A stretch of 64,000 nt of DNA from the NCBI GenBank assembly GCA_030681475.1, contig JAUXWT010000049.1, forward strand, positions 7,991-71,990. The letters run 5' to 3'. Below, piece by piece: positions 3,945 through 42,604 of this stretch. This stretch comes from Bacteroidales bacterium (lineage in GTDB: Bacteria; Bacteroidota; Bacteroidia; Bacteroidales; FEN-979). The position numbers and the translations under genes are program-made. A model generated the notes under the pieces. That model had not been told where the DNA came from. It was given only the letters and a program-made list of their open reading frames with translations, and searched no databases. Each line of letters begins with the position of its first letter. Position 1 is the stretch's first letter.

Positions 3945-4034
3945 ATGCAAGCAATGGAGACAATGCAAGCAAGGAAAACAATGCAAGTAATGAAGACAAT
4001 GCAGGCAATGAAGGCAATGCAAGTAATGGCGCGA
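3945..4034 (+). repeat. Nonamer tandem array, 10 units (consensus ATGCAAGCA / ATGAAGACA, alternating to give an 18-bp super-repeat)
   Basis: Read directly from the sequence. Nine of the ten units start with an ATG in frame with the downstream cytochrome ORF. The array ends exactly at the ATG at 4035. Confidence 0.9.
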
Positions 4035-5633
4035 ATGAAATTAATAATTAGTTTACTGGCTTTATTGGTTGGTTGTCAGGGGTATGCTCAAATCTCACCA
4101 GGGGAATTATCCAAGGTTCATGCTCATCTGGAGGGGATATCAAATTGCACACAATGCCATATCCTGGGAAAAAAGGTGTCCAATAAAAAATGCCTGGATT
4201 GCCATACAGAGATCAAAGAACGGATTGAACAAAAGACTGGATATCATTCATCTTCCGACATCAGGGGTAAGGAGTGTGTTGCCTGTCACAGCGACCATCA
4301 CGGGTTAAATTTTCAGATCATCCGGTTCAACACAGAACAATTCGATCACAACTTAACAGGATTCGGTTTGTCAGGCGCACACAGCAAGAAGCAATGTTCC
4401 GACTGCCATAAAAAGGAATTCATTAAAGATCAGAAGATCAAAGCGAAAAAATTCACTTACCTTGGCTTGGGTTCAGGTTGCCTGACATGCCATGCGGATT
4501 ATCACCAGCAAACAATGTCGGCAAAATGCACTGAATGTCATGAATTTACAGCCTTCAAACCTGCCTCAAAATTCAACCATGACAAAACTGAATTTAAATT
4601 AATCGGGAAACATATCCAGGTCGCATGCATTGGCTGTCATAAGACCGGAACTAAAAACGGACAAAGCTTCCAGGAATTCAAGGACATCAAATTCGATAAC
4701 TGCACAAGCTGCCATCAGGATGTACACAACAACAAGTTTGGACAGAATTGCACACAATGTCATACAGAACAGTCATTCGGGTACATCAAAGGCGTCCGGA
4801 ATTTCGACCACGATAAAACTGATTTCAGGCTGGAGGGAAAACATCAAACAGTCGGATGCAATGATTGTCATAAAACTAAATTAACCAATGCGCTGAAATT
4901 CGGTCGGTGCACCGACTGTCATGCCGATTATCATAAGAACCAATTTGCTGCGCAGGGAGTATCACCTGATTGTTCGCAATGTCATACCGTAAATGGGTTC
5001 TCTGAAAGTACTTATACCATGGAACGGCACAACCAAGGCGTCTTTCCGTTAAGGGGAGCTCATCTGGCAACGCCATGTTTTGCCTGTCATAATAAAAATG
5101 CCGGTCAGACGCAGAAAAACTGGCAGTTCACGAAGATCGGGATGCGTTGCATCGACTGTCACCAGAATATTCACCAACAATTTATCAGCGAGAGATATTA
5201 TCCCCAATCAAGTTGCGAGAGTTGTCATGACGAGACCCGTTGGAATTCAATCAACTTTGATCACAACAAAACGAATTTTGAACTTACCGGTACACATGCC
5301 CATAAAACCTGCAGGGATTGTCATTTCAACAAAGAAAAGGAAGGAACCACACAGCAGAAATTTATGGGTACGCCAGCCACCTGCTCAGGATGCCATATCG
5401 ACATTCATTTACAACAGTTTGATAACAATGGGGTTAACGATTGTTCAAGATGTCATGACCCTGTTTCATTTAAACCTGTGACGAAATTTGATCACAGTAA
5501 AACCTTATTCCCGTTGGATGGAAAACACAAAGATCTTGCCTGTAACAAATGTCACAAGGTAATGGAGAATAATGGAATTTATTATGTACTGTACAAAATA
5601 AAGGAGTTCAAATGCGAAAATTGTCATCATTGA
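4035..5633 (+). CDS. Multihaem c-type cytochrome, 20 CXXCH, lipoprotein
   Basis: I counted 20 CXXCH motifs. The signal peptide MKLIISLLALLVGC carries a lipobox. Repeated F-[DN]-H-x-K-T-x-F-x-L-x-G-x-H...CxxCH modules resemble c3/c7-type polymers. The ORF-track start at 3945 lies inside the repeat array, so 4035 is preferred. Confidence 0.9.
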   Translation: MKLIISLLALLVGCQGYAQISPGELSKVHAHLEGISNCTQCHILGKKVSNKKCLDCHTEIKERIEQKTGYHSSSDIRGKECVACHSDHHGLNFQIIRFNTEQFDHNLTGFGLSGAHSKKQCSDCHKKEFIKDQKIKAKKFTYLGLGSGCLTCHADYHQQTMSAKCTECHEFTAFKPASKFNHDKTEFKLIGKHIQVACIGCHKTGTKNGQSFQEFKDIKFDNCTSCHQDVHNNKFGQNCTQCHTEQSFGYIKGVRNFDHDKTDFRLEGKHQTVGCNDCHKTKLTNALKFGRCTDCHADYHKNQFAAQGVSPDCSQCHTVNGFSESTYTMERHNQGVFPLRGAHLATPCFACHNKNAGQTQKNWQFTKIGMRCIDCHQNIHQQFISERYYPQSSCESCHDETRWNSINFDHNKTNFELTGTHAHKTCRDCHFNKEKEGTTQQKFMGTPATCSGCHIDIHLQQFDNNGVNDCSRCHDPVSFKPVTKFDHSKTLFPLDGKHKDLACNKCHKVMENNGIYYVLYKIKEFKCENCHH

Positions 5634-22228: not shown

Positions 22229-22263
22229 TTTTGTAACTATCTACAAACGATTAACTTTGCACC

Positions 22264-23154
22264 TTGTTAAAAAAACTCCGCATACCAGTCTATTTTTATC
22301 CGGTGGCCGCCATGCTTTTCTGGGGTCTTTCGTTCATATGGAGTTCAATGCTTCTGCAACATTACCAGCCTGTCACCATCATCTTTATCCGTTTGATCAT
22401 TTCTTCGGCATTCCTGTTCACACTGATCTATTTTTTAGGCAGAAATGAAAAAGTGGACCGGAAGGATTACAAGTTGATCTTATTAAGTGCCCTGTTCAAT
22501 CCATTCTTCTATTTCCTGGGTGAAAATTACGGTTTGAAATACTCATCCCCAACAATTGCAGCTGTTGTAATAGCTACCATTCCTGTTTTTGCTCCATTGG
22601 TCGGTTATCTGAGTTTCAGGGAAAAGCTGACACCAGTCAATTTCATTGGTATTGCTGTCTCATTTGCTGGCGTCATACTTATGCTGGTCACCCGTGATCT
22701 TTCGCTGGCTGCAGATATCAAAGGTATCCTTTTTCTCTTTTGTGCGGTATTTTCCGCATTATTATACTCTGTCACACTCCGGAAACTGACCTTGAAATAC
22801 TCTGCCATCTTGTTGGTTGCCTTACAAAACCTGATCGGGATTTTTCTTTTTCTCCCATTTTTTCTTTTTTACGAAGCAAAGTTGGCCATTGCTGTACCAA
22901 TTACTTCTGAGATAATTGTATCCATGTTTCTCCTTGCCATTCTTGCCTCCTCCCTGGCATTTGTATTTTTCGCCCATTCGGTGAAGTTACTTGGGATCAG
23001 CAAATCGAATATTTTTTCCAATTTAATCCCTGTATTTACGGCATTTTTTTCGTATCTCATTCTTGCTGAACTTTTTAACATTCAAAAAATCACAGGAATT
23101 GCATTGGTCATCTTCGGAGTGTATCTGTCGGAAAGGACAAAGAAAAGAGTTTAA
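22264..23154 (+). CDS. DMT-superfamily (EamA) transporter
   Basis: 296 aa with about 10 TM segments arranged as two EamA-like halves. The start is uncertain (TTG). Confidence 0.8.
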   Translation: MLKKLRIPVYFYPVAAMLFWGLSFIWSSMLLQHYQPVTIIFIRLIISSAFLFTLIYFLGRNEKVDRKDYKLILLSALFNPFFYFLGENYGLKYSSPTIAAVVIATIPVFAPLVGYLSFREKLTPVNFIGIAVSFAGVILMLVTRDLSLAADIKGILFLFCAVFSALLYSVTLRKLTLKYSAILLVALQNLIGIFLFLPFFLFYEAKLAIAVPITSEIIVSMFLLAILASSLAFVFFAHSVKLLGISKSNIFSNLIPVFTAFFSYLILAELFNIQKITGIALVIFGVYLSERTKKRV

Positions 23155-23170
23155 TTTACCGCAATTGTCC

Positions 23171-23178
23171 TATCTTTG
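23171..23178 (+). promoter_or_regulatory. -7 box TATCTTTG
   Basis: Exact TAnnTTTG match, 18 nt upstream of the hydG ATG. Confidence 0.45.
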
Positions 23179-23195
23179 CTAACAATGCATTAAAT

Positions 23196-24626
23196 ATGAT
23201 TTTCAGTCCCGAGAAATTAATGATCAGGGATCAGCGAATGAAACCCTTTATTGATGCCAGGGAGCTATGGGGTTTTATCAACACCACCCCTGCTACAAAG
23301 GAGAAGGTGAGGGAAGTTATTGCCAAATCGTTGGATAAAAACCGGTTGACACTTGCTGAAACGGCCATACTGATCAACGCCTCGGATCCCGAACTGATCG
23401 AAGAGATCAAACAAGGAGCCCGGACACTCAAGGAAAAAGTTTACGGACAGCGCATTGTGCTGTTTGCTCCATTATACATTGGCAACCTTTGTACCAACAA
23501 CTGTGCTTACTGTGGATTCAAGGCCTCGAACAAGAAGATAACCAGGGTTACGCTTGATCATGATGACTTGATCTCTCAGGTTAAGGCATTGGAGGACTCA
23601 GGTCAGAAACGGCTGATCCTGGTGTTTGGTGAACATCCGAAATATGATGCTAAATTCATTGCAGATTCAGTCAGGACTGTTTACTCGGTCAAAAGCGGTA
23701 ACGGCGAGATCAGACGGGTAAATATCAATGCCGCGCCCATGGAAATTGATGGTTTCCGGATCATAAAAGATGCCAGGATCGGAACTTATCAGATCTTCCA
23801 GGAAACTTATCATCAGGAAACCTATGCAAAGGTCCATCTCGGCGGACAAAAAAGGAACTATGACTGGAGACTTACGGGACTTGACCGTGCACAGGAGGCG
23901 GGGATCGACGATATTGGAATCGGAGCCCTGTTCGGACTTTACGACTGGCGGTTCGAAGTACTTGGGCTGGTAAGGCACACGAACCACTTCGAAGCCGTTT
24001 ACAATGTAGGCCCGCATACGATCTCATTTCCACGGATCCAATATGCCTCTGAACTGAACCTGGACAAGAGTCACCTGGTAAGCGATGAAGAATTTACCCG
24101 GCTGGTTGCTATTTTACGTCTGGCAGTCCCATATACCGGACTCATACTCACCGCAAGGGAAACAGCCGCCATTCGTGATGAGATCATGCAATTCGGTGTT
24201 TCACAGATCGATGGCGGCACGAACATCGAAATGGGCGGTTATTCAAAACGAAAGGAGAATGAAGAGCAGGACATAGACCTCGAACAGTTCCAGATCAACG
24301 ATAACCGCAGCCTGAACGAGATCATGGACGACCTGATCGAACATAAGTATATCCCTTCATTTTGTACCGCCTGTTACCGTTTGGGCAGAACAGGTGAACA
24401 CTTTATGGAATTTTCTGTTCCGGGATTTATTAAGCGGTTTTGTCAGCCAAATGCTTTAATGACCCTGGTGGAATACCTTGAAGACTATGCGCCGGAAGAT
24501 ACCAAAGTAAAAGGCTATCAGTTGGTCCGGGAGAAATTGGATGAAATTGAAGATGAAACATTCAAAGCCAGGTTGACTGACAAGATCAGCATGATCAAAG
24601 AAGGTAAACGCGACTTGTATTTTTGA
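23196..24626 (+). CDS. hydG: [FeFe]-hydrogenase H-cluster maturase HydG (radical SAM tyrosine lyase)
   Basis: 476 aa with the radical-SAM motif CTNNCAYC. The C-terminal CTAC-X22-C motif (spacing counted by hand) distinguishes HydG from ThiH. Confidence 0.85.
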   Translation: MIFSPEKLMIRDQRMKPFIDARELWGFINTTPATKEKVREVIAKSLDKNRLTLAETAILINASDPELIEEIKQGARTLKEKVYGQRIVLFAPLYIGNLCTNNCAYCGFKASNKKITRVTLDHDDLISQVKALEDSGQKRLILVFGEHPKYDAKFIADSVRTVYSVKSGNGEIRRVNINAAPMEIDGFRIIKDARIGTYQIFQETYHQETYAKVHLGGQKRNYDWRLTGLDRAQEAGIDDIGIGALFGLYDWRFEVLGLVRHTNHFEAVYNVGPHTISFPRIQYASELNLDKSHLVSDEEFTRLVAILRLAVPYTGLILTARETAAIRDEIMQFGVSQIDGGTNIEMGGYSKRKENEEQDIDLEQFQINDNRSLNEIMDDLIEHKYIPSFCTACYRLGRTGEHFMEFSVPGFIKRFCQPNALMTLVEYLEDYAPEDTKVKGYQLVREKLDEIEDETFKARLTDKISMIKEGKRDLYF

Positions 24627-24632
24627 AACCTA

Positions 24633-24896
24633 TTGAGCATGAAAGAACTCAGGATTATCGGTTTGCTGATCACCGACCGCATTAAGGAAGCCGGAAGAAT
24701 GCAGCAAACACTTACAAAACATGCCCACGTTATCAAATCAAGGCTCGGATTTCATGAAGTTTCTGAAGATGTATGCAGCCGGGTAGGTGTCGTCATTCTT
24801 CAGCTTGCAGGCAGCGCTGAAGCTTGCAATAAACTTGAAGATGAACTTGGTGAAATTGACGGACTCGAGATTCAGCGGATGGTTTTCAGCTATTAA
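24633..24896 (+). CDS. TM1266-like small ACT-fold protein (putative iron-only hydrogenase system regulator)
   Basis: 87 aa. The size, the pattern (..I..I.I.DR......V...L.......R.G.......C....I.L.L.G......L...L..I.G..V....F) and the adjacency to hydG match my memory of the family. Confidence 0.55.
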   Translation: MSMKELRIIGLLITDRIKEAGRMQQTLTKHAHVIKSRLGFHEVSEDVCSRVGVVILQLAGSAEACNKLEDELGEIDGLEIQRMVFSY

Positions 24897-24906
24897 AATC
24901 TTTTGA

Positions 24907-26580
24907 ATGAACTTTCATTCTAAGAAAAAATTACGCAGGGAGTTTCAGGATTTCTATATGATTTCCTCGTTACCCACCATGCGCATCGGTCTCTTTCTTA
25001 CCCTTGTCCTGTTCACATGTTTTGTCATTTTCAATTACATATTCTTTCCCGATTCACCGGAACAATTTTACTATCAACGGTTTGGAATCATCTCCCCTGT
25101 GTTGGTCATTTCGATCCTCGTTACCTATTTCAGGCCATTGTATAAATGGCTTCACTTGATCTATATATTCCTGAACTTGCTGGTTTGCGTTGCAATATTC
25201 AATGTAGGCATCCATTCTGACTTTTCCCAGCCGGGTTCTGAGTATTATTATACGTGGGTGATGCTTGTTGTGATCGGGTTGTTTGTTTTCTACAGGATGC
25301 CATTCTATACGAACGTCATCATCGGCCTGATCCAGATCACCGCCTTCATTGCAGCAACGATTTTCAATCATACGCTGGCACAAAAACCATTTTTCTTTTA
25401 CAACAACCTGTTTTTTGTTTTTGCCATCTATTCAATCGGATTCATATTGGCGTTTATGTTCAGAACACTGAACTGGAAAAACTTTCTGCACCAGAAAGCC
25501 ATTTCCAAAAACAACCTGCAACTCCAGGAAGAGATCAATGAACGGAAACAAGCCGTTGTAGCTTTACAGCTATCCGAGACCCAGTATCATAACACAATTG
25601 ATTCTATACCTGACTGGATTTTTGTTGTTGACAGGAATTTCCACGTTATCATCTTAAATTCTTCCTTGAAATACGGGCACATTGGATCTGGTCAGGTAGC
25701 AAATACATCCGGAAAGAGCATTGATGAGATATTGCCATTTATGCCGTCTGATACCATTGATGAGCTTAATTATGTATTTGATCAAGGCAAGATTCTGGTC
25801 ACAGAAGAGAAAATATCATTTATTGACACGGATGTCCATATGGAGATCCGTAAGGTACCCATATTTAATGACCGTGATGTAATTCAGGTGATGACAATTC
25901 TCCGCGACCGGTCCAAAGAAAAGGAGGTTGAGGCGTTGAAACAAAAAAATGCTGAACAAAAGGAGATCATGCTGCGTGAGATCCATCATCGCGTTAAGAA
26001 CAATCTTGCAATCGTGATCAGCCTTTTGAACCTTCAACTCCGCAACAATACGGACCAGGGGTTAGTCCGCATCATTCGTGATATTGAAATGCGCATCCGT
26101 TCCATGGCACTGATCCATGAGCATTTATACAGAGGGGAAAACCTCGACCGTATTCCATTGGCGACATATCTGCATTCCCTGGCTACAATTATAACAAGTA
26201 CCTTCAGCGGCCACCGGGTAAATCTTGTGACTTCACTTGATGTTACCGATGTGAGCATTGAAATTGCCTTACCGATAGGTTTGATCACCAATGAATTGCT
26301 GACAAATGCCTATAAATATGCTTTCCCGCGGCATCAGGATGGGGAAATTCAAATCCATTTAAACAAAGCAGCTGACGATCAGTTGACCCTCATGATCAAA
26401 GACAATGGTGTTGGATTACCTGATTCATTTTCGATGGATTCGGAAAAATCACTGGGTATGTTTATCGTAAAGTTATTGGTTCAGCAATTGGATGGTAATA
26501 TTGATTATTCCGGGCGAAACGGGACCTCCTTTACCATTCAATTCCGTAACCTTCTGGTAAAACGACAAGTGTTCTTATGA
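24907..26580 (+). CDS. Sensor histidine kinase (polytopic N-terminus, PAS, HisKA_2-type H-box, HATPase)
   Basis: 557 aa with about 6 TM segments. It has the H-box EIHHRVKNNLAIVISLL and N/G boxes (LLTNAYKYAF, DNGVGLP, GMFIV). Confidence 0.85.
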   Translation: MNFHSKKKLRREFQDFYMISSLPTMRIGLFLTLVLFTCFVIFNYIFFPDSPEQFYYQRFGIISPVLVISILVTYFRPLYKWLHLIYIFLNLLVCVAIFNVGIHSDFSQPGSEYYYTWVMLVVIGLFVFYRMPFYTNVIIGLIQITAFIAATIFNHTLAQKPFFFYNNLFFVFAIYSIGFILAFMFRTLNWKNFLHQKAISKNNLQLQEEINERKQAVVALQLSETQYHNTIDSIPDWIFVVDRNFHVIILNSSLKYGHIGSGQVANTSGKSIDEILPFMPSDTIDELNYVFDQGKILVTEEKISFIDTDVHMEIRKVPIFNDRDVIQVMTILRDRSKEKEVEALKQKNAEQKEIMLREIHHRVKNNLAIVISLLNLQLRNNTDQGLVRIIRDIEMRIRSMALIHEHLYRGENLDRIPLATYLHSLATIITSTFSGHRVNLVTSLDVTDVSIEIALPIGLITNELLTNAYKYAFPRHQDGEIQIHLNKAADDQLTLMIKDNGVGLPDSFSMDSEKSLGMFIVKLLVQQLDGNIDYSGRNGTSFTIQFRNLLVKRQVFL

Positions 26581-26590
26581 ATTATTCAAG

Positions 26591-26848
26591 ATGAAAGAGA
26601 TTTGGATTCTCGGTGTACACATCACCGACAGAGTGCCGGAAGTTTCAGTCGTTCAGGCAGTCCTGACAAAGTTCGGATGTACCATCAAGACCCGTCTGGG
26701 CCTGCACGAAGTAAAAGACGACTTCTGCGCACGCTCCGGGCTGATCATACTTGAGCTTACCGGCAACAGGGAAGAGTTTTTTAAACTGGAGAACGAATTG
26801 CTGAAGATTGATGGGTTGGAGGTGAAGAAGATGGTTTTTGAAGAATAA
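26591..26848 (+). CDS. TM1266-like small ACT-fold protein, paralogue of 24633-24896
   Basis: 85 aa, with 44 of 85 positions identical to the upstream paralogue in a hand alignment. Confidence 0.55.
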   Translation: MKEIWILGVHITDRVPEVSVVQAVLTKFGCTIKTRLGLHEVKDDFCARSGLIILELTGNREEFFKLENELLKIDGLEVKKMVFEE

Positions 26849-26855
26849 TTCGTCA

Positions 26856-27800
26856 TTATACAAGCGTTACCCTTGTTCCACCGTCATCAATTCCCAGCAT
26901 GGTCGTTTGGGTAATGATGGTATCTTTGCCGGAGCGCTCAACAAAGTGTATCGCAGCGCGTACTTTGGGGCCCATGCTGCCTTCAGGGAACTGGCCCTCG
27001 TCAAGGTAGCGTTTGGCTTCGGCAATGGTCATCCGGTCAAGTGCTTTTTCCTGGGGAGTATTGTAATTGATGCACACCTTTGGAACATCGGTGAGTATGA
27101 AAAGTTTATCCGCATTGATCTGTGAGGCAAGGAGCGCTGACGCCAGATCCTTATCAATCACGGCATCGATGCCCTGTAATTTATTTGGTTCAACATAATA
27201 GACCGGAATTCCGCCTCCACCCACTGCAATGGCAATTTGTCCGCCACGGGCGATCGATTCAATGGTTTTTTTGTTGATAATAACGAGCGGTATGGGAGAT
27301 GCAACTACTTTTCTCCAGCCCCGGCCGCGGGGATCCTCCTTGAACACCGATTTTGTTTCTTTAGTCAATGTATCAGCCTCCTCTTTTGTATAATAAGGAC
27401 CGACTGGCTTCGTTGGTTTCTGAAAAGCCGGATCGTCCTTATTGACAAGCACCTGGGTGGTGATGGTGATGATGTCGCGTTCCATGTCATGGATCTCCAG
27501 TACGTTTTTCAGTTGCTGTTCAATGATATAGCCAATAAATCCCTGGGAATAGGCAACACAGATATCCAGTGGCATCTCCGGGATCCCAAACATTTTAAAC
27601 CCGGCCGAGTTGGCCAGCATGATGTTACCCACCTGGGGCCCATTCCCATGGGTTATCACGATGTTGTACTCGCGTTTGATCAGCTTGATAAGACTTTCGG
27701 CCGTTGCGTTTGCATTTGCCTCCTGTTCATCGATGGTTCCTTTCTGATCTCCCCGTAACAGAGCATTTCCCCCAAGGGCAACAACAGCAAGCTTTTTCAT
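26856..27800 (-). CDS. arcC: Carbamate kinase
   Basis: 314 aa with MKKLAVVALGGNALL, ITHGNGPQVG and a typical C-terminal half. Confidence 0.9.
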   Translation of the reverse strand: MKKLAVVALGGNALLRGDQKGTIDEQEANANATAESLIKLIKREYNIVITHGNGPQVGNIMLANSAGFKMFGIPEMPLDICVAYSQGFIGYIIEQQLKNVLEIHDMERDIITITTQVLVNKDDPAFQKPTKPVGPYYTKEEADTLTKETKSVFKEDPRGRGWRKVVASPIPLVIINKKTIESIARGGQIAIAVGGGGIPVYYVEPNKLQGIDAVIDKDLASALLASQINADKLFILTDVPKVCINYNTPQEKALDRMTIAEAKRYLDEGQFPEGSMGPKVRAAIHFVERSGKDTIITQTTMLGIDDGGTRVTLV

Positions 27801-40408: not shown

Positions 40409-42604
40409 ATGGCAAAAAAGAGTAATACCATTACCGTAGAAAGAAAGATAAGAGTGGCATTAAAAAAAAGCGAAGAGAAGTACAGGATGTTGCTTGACCT
40501 GGCGGTGGATGCAGTTTTCCATGGTGACGGTACTGGCAAGTTTATCACAGTAAACGATAAAGCTGTCGAATTAACCGGATATTCAAAGAAAGAACTGTTG
40601 AAGATGAATATCCGGGACTTGTTCCCCAATTACGCTCCGGACAGTAATCCATTGAATTATGATCTGCTTTCGGGTGGGATAACCATAAAAACAGTCAGGG
40701 AGATCATCCGTAAGGACGACAAGCGACTTCTTATTGAAATGACTTCAAAGGCGATGCCCGATGATACCTACCAGTCGCTGTTCAGAGACATCACTGAGAG
40801 CAGAAATGCAGAATTAGCCGCCCTTGATACAGCGCTTAAATACCGAAACCTCCATATGAGTATGATGGACGGGTACGTTTTTGTGGATATGAACGGAAAA
40901 ATAATAGACAGTAACAGCGCCTATCAGCGGATGCTCGGATACAATGCCATTGAACTTAACGCCCTTACTTATGAAGACCTGACCCCTTCGAAATGGCATG
41001 ATTTTGAGCATAATATCGTTGACCAGGAAATATTACCCAACGGCCACTCAGGTGTTTACCAGAAAGAATACCTTAAAAAGGATGGCACTGTTTTCCCGGT
41101 TGAGTTGCGTACCTTCCTTGTCAGGAATACCTCCGGGAGGAATGAAGGGATGTGGGCAATCGTGCGCGACATCACCAAGCGGAAACAGGCAGAAGACGAC
41201 CTTATGAAATCGGAAGAGAAGTTCAGGAGTATCGTGGAATCCTCTCCGACTGGTATGCTCTTTTACCAACTCGATAACAGCGACAACCTGATCCTTACTG
41301 GCGCCAACCCTGCTGCCGACAATATTCTGGGTATATCGCACAAAACACTGATTGGGAGTACGATCCTGGAGGCATTTCCAAACCTGGCATCTACCGGTAT
41401 TCCTGAATTGTACAAGAAAGTGGCCACCGGTGATACCGGTTCTCAATATTTCGAGATTCCTTATGAGGACGAAAGGTTTTCGGGATATTATACTGTTCAT
41501 GTGTTCAGAACAGGTTCACGTACAATCGCGGTCGATTTTTCCGACATTACCAGGAGAAGACAGATGGAAGAAGCCCTTCGCCACTCGGAGATCGAATACC
41601 GTGACACATTGAATTCAATGCCTGACTGGATTTATGTTGTCGACGAACATTATAAGATTGCCCTGGTCAACTCAGCGTTAACACAGGAGCTGATCCGACA
41701 GGGGTTTAAACCGGACTGCCTGGGCATGGAAATCGGGCATAAATTTCCATTTATTACCGGTAAAGCAATTAAGACAGTAAAACTCGTGTTCAGTACCGGA
41801 AACGTATCGGTCAGTGAGCAAAAAGTTGACCTGGCTGGCAGCAAGCATCACGTTGAAATCACCTGTGCACCTATTTTAAAGAATGACAAAGTTGTCAAAG
41901 TGATCCTGATGATCCGTGACCGGTCGAAGGAGAAAGAGATCGAGGAGTTGAAGCGTCGAAATGCAGAACAAAAGGAGGTATTGCTCAGGGAGATACACCA
42001 CCGTGTAAAGAACAACCTGGCGATCGTGATCAGTCTGTTGAACTTTCAGCTCAGGAATAATACCAACGGAGAACTTGCCCGGATTATCATTGATATTCAG
42101 ATGCGCATTCGCTCGATGGCCCTCATCCATGAAAATCTGTACCGGTCCGAAAATATCGACCGCATCCCGCTAACAAACTATATCGATGCACTTGTCTATA
42201 TGATCATTAATACCTATAGTGGGCAACACATAAAGCTGGAGAGACATCTTGATCCCATGGAAGTCTGCATCGAAACTGCCCTGCCAATCGGATTGATCGT
42301 GAATGAACTTTTAACCAATTCATTCAAGTACGCCTTCCCGGCCGGAGGACAGGGAGTCATCCATATCCGGCTTAAAAAAGAAGATGACCAGATGTGTACC
42401 CTTGTCGTTGAAGATAATGGCGTGGGTCTTCCCGAATCCATATCCATGGACTCGGAAAAGTCGATCGGGCTTTATATTGTTCATCTGCTCGTTGAACAAC
42501 TCGAAGGTACTTTAAAAATTGACCGTAATAACGGTACCTCCTTTGAGATCCGTTTCAGGAATATTGTCAGGAAGAAAAAGCCGCAATTACAGGATAGTGA
42601 ATAA
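40409..42604 (+). CDS. Soluble multi-PAS sensor histidine kinase (HisKA_2-type)
   Basis: 731 aa with about four PAS-like repeats, the H-box EIHHRVKNNLAIVISLL and a HATPase domain. The C-terminal ~330 aa are paralogous to the 24907-26580 kinase. Confidence 0.85.
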   Translation: MAKKSNTITVERKIRVALKKSEEKYRMLLDLAVDAVFHGDGTGKFITVNDKAVELTGYSKKELLKMNIRDLFPNYAPDSNPLNYDLLSGGITIKTVREIIRKDDKRLLIEMTSKAMPDDTYQSLFRDITESRNAELAALDTALKYRNLHMSMMDGYVFVDMNGKIIDSNSAYQRMLGYNAIELNALTYEDLTPSKWHDFEHNIVDQEILPNGHSGVYQKEYLKKDGTVFPVELRTFLVRNTSGRNEGMWAIVRDITKRKQAEDDLMKSEEKFRSIVESSPTGMLFYQLDNSDNLILTGANPAADNILGISHKTLIGSTILEAFPNLASTGIPELYKKVATGDTGSQYFEIPYEDERFSGYYTVHVFRTGSRTIAVDFSDITRRRQMEEALRHSEIEYRDTLNSMPDWIYVVDEHYKIALVNSALTQELIRQGFKPDCLGMEIGHKFPFITGKAIKTVKLVFSTGNVSVSEQKVDLAGSKHHVEITCAPILKNDKVVKVILMIRDRSKEKEIEELKRRNAEQKEVLLREIHHRVKNNLAIVISLLNFQLRNNTNGELARIIIDIQMRIRSMALIHENLYRSENIDRIPLTNYIDALVYMIINTYSGQHIKLERHLDPMEVCIETALPIGLIVNELLTNSFKYAFPAGGQGVIHIRLKKEDDQMCTLVVEDNGVGLPESISMDSEKSIGLYIVHLLVEQLEGTLKIDRNNGTSFEIRFRNIVRKKKPQLQDSE

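Follow-up and report, generated by a model that had tools for sequence, protein, structure and literature searches.

Proteins of the TM1266 family (TIGR03959/PF21699; structure 2NZC) are about 85 amino acids (aa) long and are genomically linked to hydG, the gene for the radical S-adenosylmethionine (radical-SAM) maturase of the [FeFe]-hydrogenase H-cluster, and we take their annotation to be that of an 'iron-only hydrogenase system putative regulator'. The TM1266 orthologue of Thermotoga neapolitana is induced together with hydG and hydE (PMC7039931). A literature search recovered no mechanistic work on TM1266 proteins or on those of CPF_0552 (NF052672), a subfamily model with no function assigned. 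Among sensor kinases, members of the HWE/HisKA_2 group (LovK, PhyK, EL346) are often encoded without an adjacent response regulator, and the small ligand sensor PII (GlnB), which has a ferredoxin-like fold, switches the histidine kinase NtrB by direct binding. Here we describe a locus in 64,000 nt of DNA (the window) from a 98.7%-complete metagenome-assembled genome (MAG) of a Bacteroidales bacterium (111 contigs), in which four co-oriented genes encode HydG, a small protein (A), a membrane sensor histidine kinase (K) and a second small protein (B). An earlier note on this DNA had described the kinase as sandwiched between two TM1266-like paralogues and had suggested that the kinase and two ACT-like modules form one sensing unit. 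The sandwich observation as a whole was confirmed, while the interpretation was partly supported: hydG-A-B is the ancestral unit across Bacteroidales, and the kinase was inserted into it once, in the common ancestor of a single family (f1), with subsequent loss or decay of the gene in some lineages.

The promoter element and the four genes of the locus are as follows.

23171-23178, plus strand: Bacteroidetes-type -7 promoter box TATCTTTG, 18 nt upstream of the hydG ATG
23196-24626, plus strand: hydG, 476 aa, radical-SAM H-cluster maturase (TIGR03955; Radical_SAM and BATS domains)
24639-24896, plus strand: small protein A, 85 aa, TM1266/NikR-C-like fold; alternative TTG start at 24633
24907-26580, plus strand: kinase K, 557 aa, membrane sensor histidine kinase, the inserted gene
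26591-26848, plus strand: small protein B, 85 aa, paralogue of A

Several details of the earlier description changed on closer reading. Position 23171, at which the earlier description begins, is the first base of the -7 box and not of a gene. Protein A had been given as 87 aa, with gaps of 6, 10 and 10 nt between the four genes; the ATG at 24639 is equivalent in nearly all of the 120 orthologues listed, each 85 aa, so A most likely starts there and the TTG at 24633 is probably not the start. This start makes the gaps 12, 10 and 10 nt, the latter two as first given. The length of B stood, as did the count of 44 identical positions between A and B, although these fall within 83 aligned positions rather than 85 (53% identity, E 5e-31).

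To place the locus we sampled 301 genomes of the order, 78 of which were strongly positive for A/B. Most of the positive genomes carried two copies, mostly as adjacent tandems 270-300 bp apart from start to start, with spacers of 15-60 nt between A and B, while a distance of about 1.95 kb between the copies was observed only in family f1. A and B form two orthologous types across loci, and the order hydG, A-type, B-type was observed in all eight of the first loci retrieved (one from genus g2, which lacks the kinase, and seven from other families). Unlike the TM1266 family, the cassette comprises two diverged paralogues in a fixed order downstream of hydG, with A directly behind hydG wherever the two were observed together. 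HydG was present in 73 of the 78 A/B-positive genomes. Expressed the other way, the pair was found in 73 of 192 HydG-positive and 5 of 109 HydG-negative genomes, counts that are descriptive only, as related genomes are not independent; one of the five HydG-negative genomes has a truncated hydG at a contig edge. The linkage of the small proteins to hyd genes, given in the earlier note, is borne out by these data, whereas the 'symmetrical' small-kinase-small unit is better described as an old A-B tandem split by the later insertion of a gene.

In some families B was unlinked from the cassette, adjoining truA, rubrerythrin or purN, while A stayed behind hydG. A recurrent gene after the unlinked B was truA (tRNA pseudouridine synthase A), observed in loci from other Bacteroidales families (L049, L051, L054); B preceded a rubrerythrin-like gene in L047 and lay near a HydF-like GTPase gene in L057. 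One exception to co-orientation was observed (G053:C22:42004-44039), where the A/B pair and hydG are still adjacent but convergent, on opposite strands. Two loci (L132, Plebeiibacterium; L147, Saccharicrinis) had a single B-type gene upstream of hydG (B at 4001, hydG at 4431), an order that resembles the position of TM1266 in Firmicutes and Thermotoga.

Family f1, the Bacteroidales family of the window genome, was represented by 61 genomes, 57 of them with hydG. The A-K-B sandwich was observed in 34 of the 61 genomes from about nine genera, including three with a PAS-less kinase of about 435 aa and one split by a contig end. Twelve genomes (all 11 sampled from genus g2, plus G328) carried the A-B tandem without the kinase, while five (G325, G320, G336, G356, G305) carried an intact kinase without A and B; in the last of these no hydG was detected at 97% completeness. 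In two further genomes the kinase was at the old site with hydG on another contig, accompanied by B in G346 and by a decaying B in G350, so that in G346 K and B were kept together after the loss of hydG-A. A secreted alkaline phosphatase gene lay between A and B in one genome (G308), B alone was observed in another (G306), and six genomes had neither A, B nor the kinase.

A B-type profile run against GTDB species genomes found 80 loci; 33 were full sandwiches, and the rest included two sandwiches truncated at contig ends, one K-B locus and one (L083) with a kinase remnant. The submitters had labelled these loci as Bacteroidales, Prolixibacteraceae or Draconibacterium MAGs, most of which came from lakes and sediments. 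The arrangement recurs in 42 distinct kinase-bearing loci, far beyond chance, and is not unique to one genome. Full-length kinase orthologues were 43-76% identical and were found only in family f1. This family is monophyletic in the HydG tree (100/100), and within it the kinase-less genus g2 nests beside the kinase-bearing g210 (96/94); genus g2 therefore lost the kinase. The remnant in L083 (L083:2623-3080), located between A and B, joins kinase residues of about 7-96 to those of about 499-554, an internal deletion that shows how the kinase was lost in place.

Two single loci are described here in their own right. The gene between A and B in G308 (L036:772-2241) encodes a 489-aa secreted alkaline phosphatase (PF00245, 166.6 bits) and represents a second, unrelated insertion at the junction used by the kinase. 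Genome G320 holds, at a separate site, an extra partial copy of its sandwich kinase (L064, G320:C26:22000-25000) with a 381-aa open frame, which groups with the G320 kinase (100/100).

Spacing and promoter motifs were examined for the transcription of the inserted gene. Of the 94 hydG loci inspected, most have a -7 box (TAnnTTTG) no more than about 45 nt from the start of hydG. Median gaps in the 42 distinct kinase loci were 11 nt from A to K and 5 nt from K to B, with some K-B junctions overlapping, and no TAnnTTTG box was found within 150 nt upstream of K or B in these loci, except in two without hydG-A. In these two loci, which lost hydG-A, the box is directly before the kinase. With such short gaps and no promoter box in front of the kinase, hydG-A-K-B is probably transcribed as a unit from the conserved hydG promoter, and the conserved position, tight spacing and shared promoter make it likely that the kinase is co-expressed with HydG.

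The locus is flanked by two synteny markers.

22264-23154, plus strand: EamA-family transporter gene, upstream synteny marker of the locus in family f1
26856-27800, minus strand: carbamate kinase gene arcC (TIGR00746, 375.9 bits), convergent downstream synteny marker

A full Bacteroidetes promoter consensus, TTTG-N18-TAACTTTG, was observed on the plus strand at 22230-22259, directly before the EamA transporter gene. The window contains three such matches, with about two expected by chance.

The kinase itself was described in the earlier note as a 557-aa polytopic protein of the PAS/HisKA_2 type, and the domain searches agreed. The parts of K and its closest paralogue in the window are listed below.

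24958-25464, plus strand: N-terminal module of K, about six membrane helices with short loops (hydropathy)
25600-25923, plus strand: PAS_4 domain of K (PF08448, 38 bits)
25978-26547, plus strand: HisKA_2 and HATPase_c domains of K (PF07568, 83.7 bits; PF02518, 47.2 bits)
40409-42604, plus strand: soluble multi-PAS HisKA_2 kinase, 731 aa, closest paralogue of K, 13.8 kb downstream

Like the HWE/HisKA_2 kinases, K has a HisKA_2 and HATPase_c core with all catalytic boxes. It differs from them by an unclassified six-helix membrane module and a PAS domain without a cofactor signature, and it scored far below the cut-offs of the PhyK and LOV-kinase equivalog models (98.7 vs 750 and 61.7 vs 450 bits, respectively). 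The membrane module had no Pfam match at E <= 10 and was seen solely in orthologues of K among 5.8 billion proteins; a faint precomputed MASE8 (PF20968) entry for some orthologues was reproduced neither at the same Pfam threshold nor in a genome search, and we rejected this assignment. Across the 42 distinct full-length orthologues no His or Cys of the kind expected for haem or a flavin adduct is conserved in the PAS domain, and in the kinases of about 435 aa from genus g213 the domain is deleted. The region for dimerization and histidine phosphotransfer (DHp) is the most conserved part of K, and in the same orthologues the H-box, N-box and G-boxes, with residues H360/H361, N462/N467, D499-G501-G503 and G517, reach 95% conservation or more. 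With its catalytic motifs kept, K is predicted to be a catalytically active kinase.

The 731-aa soluble kinase is 53% identical to K over K residues 209-554, and a tree of the cytoplasmic halves separated the sandwich kinases and the soluble multi-PAS kinases into two clean clades (97/95). The multi-PAS kinase is also present in genus g2, which is without K, and it is the likely source of the cytoplasmic half of K. In contrast to a classical two-component system, K has no adjacent response-regulator gene, as the earlier note had stated: none of the 56 receiver domains of the genome is in the window, and on this contig the closest response regulator is at a distance of about 95 kb.

Scores against curated families place A and B near TM1266 without making them members. 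The earlier note had called both proteins TM1266-like and had named a TIGR03959-type model as the check. Against this model A scored 33.9 and B 21.3 bits (cut-off 60.8), and against PF21699 they scored 25.5 and 16.6 bits (gathering threshold 27), so the TM1266 likeness stands at the level of the fold and not at that of the family thresholds. The best curated family for both is NF052672 (CPF_0552; cut-off 85 bits), which B passes with 101.2 bits and A misses marginally with 81.8 bits; this model lumps together the A-type and B-type groups seen here. An AlphaFold2 model of A (predicted local distance difference test score 87) has a beta-alpha-beta-beta-alpha-beta topology. Foldseek searches of the Protein Data Bank (PDB) with this model gave 2NZC as the top match, with a template-modelling score (TM) of 0.84 and E 7e-7; over the family the comparison ranged from TM 0.84 to 0.89, with a root-mean-square deviation of about 2 Å. 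An A profile also reached 2NZC in the PDB at E 0.0045, while the sequence of B alone gave no PDB match at E <= 1.

The second-best Foldseek match of the A model was the C-terminal domain of NikR (1Q5Y, 3BKU, 2BJ7; TM 0.73-0.79). In A, residues His39 and Glu40 end strand 2 and Cys46 precedes strand 3, and this is presumably the same topological place as that of the NikR nickel ligands, which we take to be His87, His89 and Cys95. A lacks the ribbon-helix-helix DNA-binding domain of NikR and any detectable sequence relationship to it, and its metal site is putative. A relationship by sequence was sought by aligning the A profile with a manually entered sequence of E. coli NikR in hhalign, and was rejected at a probability of 0.2%. 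PII-like proteins, including SbtB, were weak matches (TM 0.57-0.63); A is not homologous to PII, and in contrast to PII and NtrB, A/B and the kinase each occur alone here.

The residues at this place form a motif in A, encoded as follows.

24753-24776, plus strand: codons of the A motif His39-Glu40-x5-Cys46, at the end of strand 2 and in the loop before strand 3

The motif (GFHE-x5-CSR in A-type proteins) was invariant in 36 of 36 sequences, and His39-Glu40-x5-Cys46 was also present in 30 of 30 A-type sequences taken from loci and in 9 of 9 A halves of A-B read-through fusions. An alignment showed it to be absent from TM1266. The invariant His, Glu and Cys look like a candidate metal or ligand site. 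B-type proteins vary at the matching residues and have a conserved FGC(S/T)I motif instead; no correlation was found between the loss of the His/Cys site of B and the presence of the kinase, as these residues vary equally with and without it. The fusions represent nine tandem loci in which A and B share a frame and are parted by TAA codons alone, here joined by reading TAA as glycine. An AlphaFold model of one fusion (predicted template-modelling score 0.74, linker disordered) is compatible with A possibly packing against B.

The hydG translation scored 504.7 bits against TIGR03955 (equivalog cut-off 312.15), the next-best model, ThiH, gave 286 bits and is under its own cut-off, and both cysteine motifs cited in the earlier note are present: CTNNCAYC, the radical-SAM CX3CX2C, and CTAC-x22-C, the C-terminal CX2CX22C auxiliary-cluster motif. 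On these scores and motifs the product reads as a true HydG. The statement that hydE, hydF and hydA lie outside the window was correct, while the label 'orphan' was not, as all three were located elsewhere in the genome and hydG is merely unlinked. A hydE gene is on contig C54 (354 bits) and hydF on contig C81 (495 bits), each solitary among unrelated genes, and contig C64 has two HydA genes, one in a HydABC-type trimer and the other fused to an epimerase-like domain.

The fused protein on C64 (L044:3481-6795, minus strand) is 1103 aa long and combines an N-terminal NAD-dependent epimerase/dehydratase with a complete [FeFe]-hydrogenase (Fer2_4, NADH-G, Fe_hyd_lg_C and Fe_hyd_SSU domains). Its gene adjoins the HydABC-type operon and a two-component pair of the HisKA/OmpR type. 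The response regulator close to HydABC was considered as a partner of K and rejected, as it is paired with its own HisKA kinase.

The model that we favour, with a probability of about 0.6, is that the old hydG-A-B pair was split by a kinase that is a co-expressed addition and forms no physical complex with A and B. Under this model A and B would act jointly on HydG or its substrates, with A as the conserved ligand- or metal-binding partner (through His39-Glu40-x5-Cys46) and B as the more variable one. A new kinase gene, built from the copied PAS-HisKA_2-HATPase end of the nearby multi-PAS kinase and the six-helix membrane module, would have entered the short A-B spacer in the common ancestor of f1. 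With no promoter of its own it would be transcribed from the hydG promoter and made whenever the cell makes HydG, and it may function like any other membrane sensor kinase, with an unlinked response regulator as its target. The connection between the kinase and H-cluster maturation would then be one of co-expression. An obligatory sensing unit of a kinase and two ACT-like modules, as proposed in the earlier note, is unlikely because natural variants show each component without the others: A-B without the kinase, the kinase without A and B, and the alkaline phosphatase in place of the kinase. From these gene contents the functional coupling of the kinase to A/B looks non-obligatory.

Several observations weigh against the co-expression model. 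The A-K-B order and the short or overlapping K-B junctions are kept among kinases that have diverged to 43% identity, which could reflect selection for the joint production of K and B, and such selection would favour a physical link. The argument for co-transcription of hydG-A-K-B draws on spacing and promoter motifs only. The base of f1 in the HydG tree is a polytomy, and the single gain therefore rests on kinase orthology and the g2+g210 node. No partner response regulator was identified for K. The fold searches used single chains and, with the A-B fusion model, validated no dimer geometry: tandem-ACT proteins matched only at TM 0.33-0.55.

The physical link itself, in which a metabolite or metal would control the kinase through the binding of an A-B hetero-oligomer, or of B alone, to its cytoplasmic part, draws on the same constancy of order in 42 distinct loci, with A-K-B gaps tighter than the A-B spacers of tandem loci, and on the retention of K with B in G346. 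The ferredoxin-like regulatory fold of the small proteins, with the PII-like SbtB among its lower-scoring matches, would suit such a role, as would a kinase with no adjacent response regulator and no recognizable ligand-binding cofactor residues in its PAS domain. However, the kinase is intact in five genomes that lack both A and B and one more has a decaying B only, the A-B pair is ancestral and widespread without any kinase, the residues of the putative site in B vary alike with and without the kinase, and in G308 this junction holds another gene. We therefore consider this reading unlikely. A form in which A and B make a metal- or metabolite-binding hetero-oligomer that both serves HydG and gates the membrane kinase appears a little less likely again. 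If A/B gating were true, family f1 would report the state of H-cluster synthesis (iron, cysteine or tyrosine supply) to a phosphorelay, a checkpoint for a metallocofactor pathway similar to PII and NtrB.

A kinase unrelated to hydrogen metabolism may instead have landed in a permissive A-B spacer and been kept by a usable promoter and rare excision. Two unrelated genes, the kinase and the secreted alkaline phosphatase, are found at the same junction, the junction is fluid in other families where B has left A, and the kinase outlasts its linkage to hydG and persists in G305, where no hydG was detected. This explanation has some weight, and we nevertheless find it doubtful: the kinase is under clear purifying selection, its position and the hydG-type promoter are kept across about nine genera, and with hydG retained so widely in f1 the natural test of independence is scant. 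The proposal that A and B are RNA-binding attenuation proteins, with the kinase in the same regulatory circuit, seems highly improbable. The A and B genes are downstream of hydG and not upstream, the invariant residues of A look like a candidate metal or ligand site, and a leader-RNA attenuator before hydG was rejected, as the position of the -7 box here and in most relatives leaves no room for one.

By itself the A-K-B arrangement is a minor oddity and does not amount to a new kind of system; its interest is in what it offers for the study of its parts. TM1266-like proteins are among the few genes that are consistently tied to [FeFe]-hydrogenase maturation without a known function. In Bacteroidales the A-then-B pair behind hydG, the His, Glu and Cys of A and the near-confinement of the pair to genomes with HydG turn this association into testable hypotheses, with A/B as a candidate for a missing accessory factor of HydG in vivo. 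The kinase insertion is a natural experiment within one family, with relatives that have the kinase, lack it, carry a PAS-less form, retain it without A/B or have another gene in its place, and these variants show which relatives to compare for an effect of the kinase on hydrogen metabolism.

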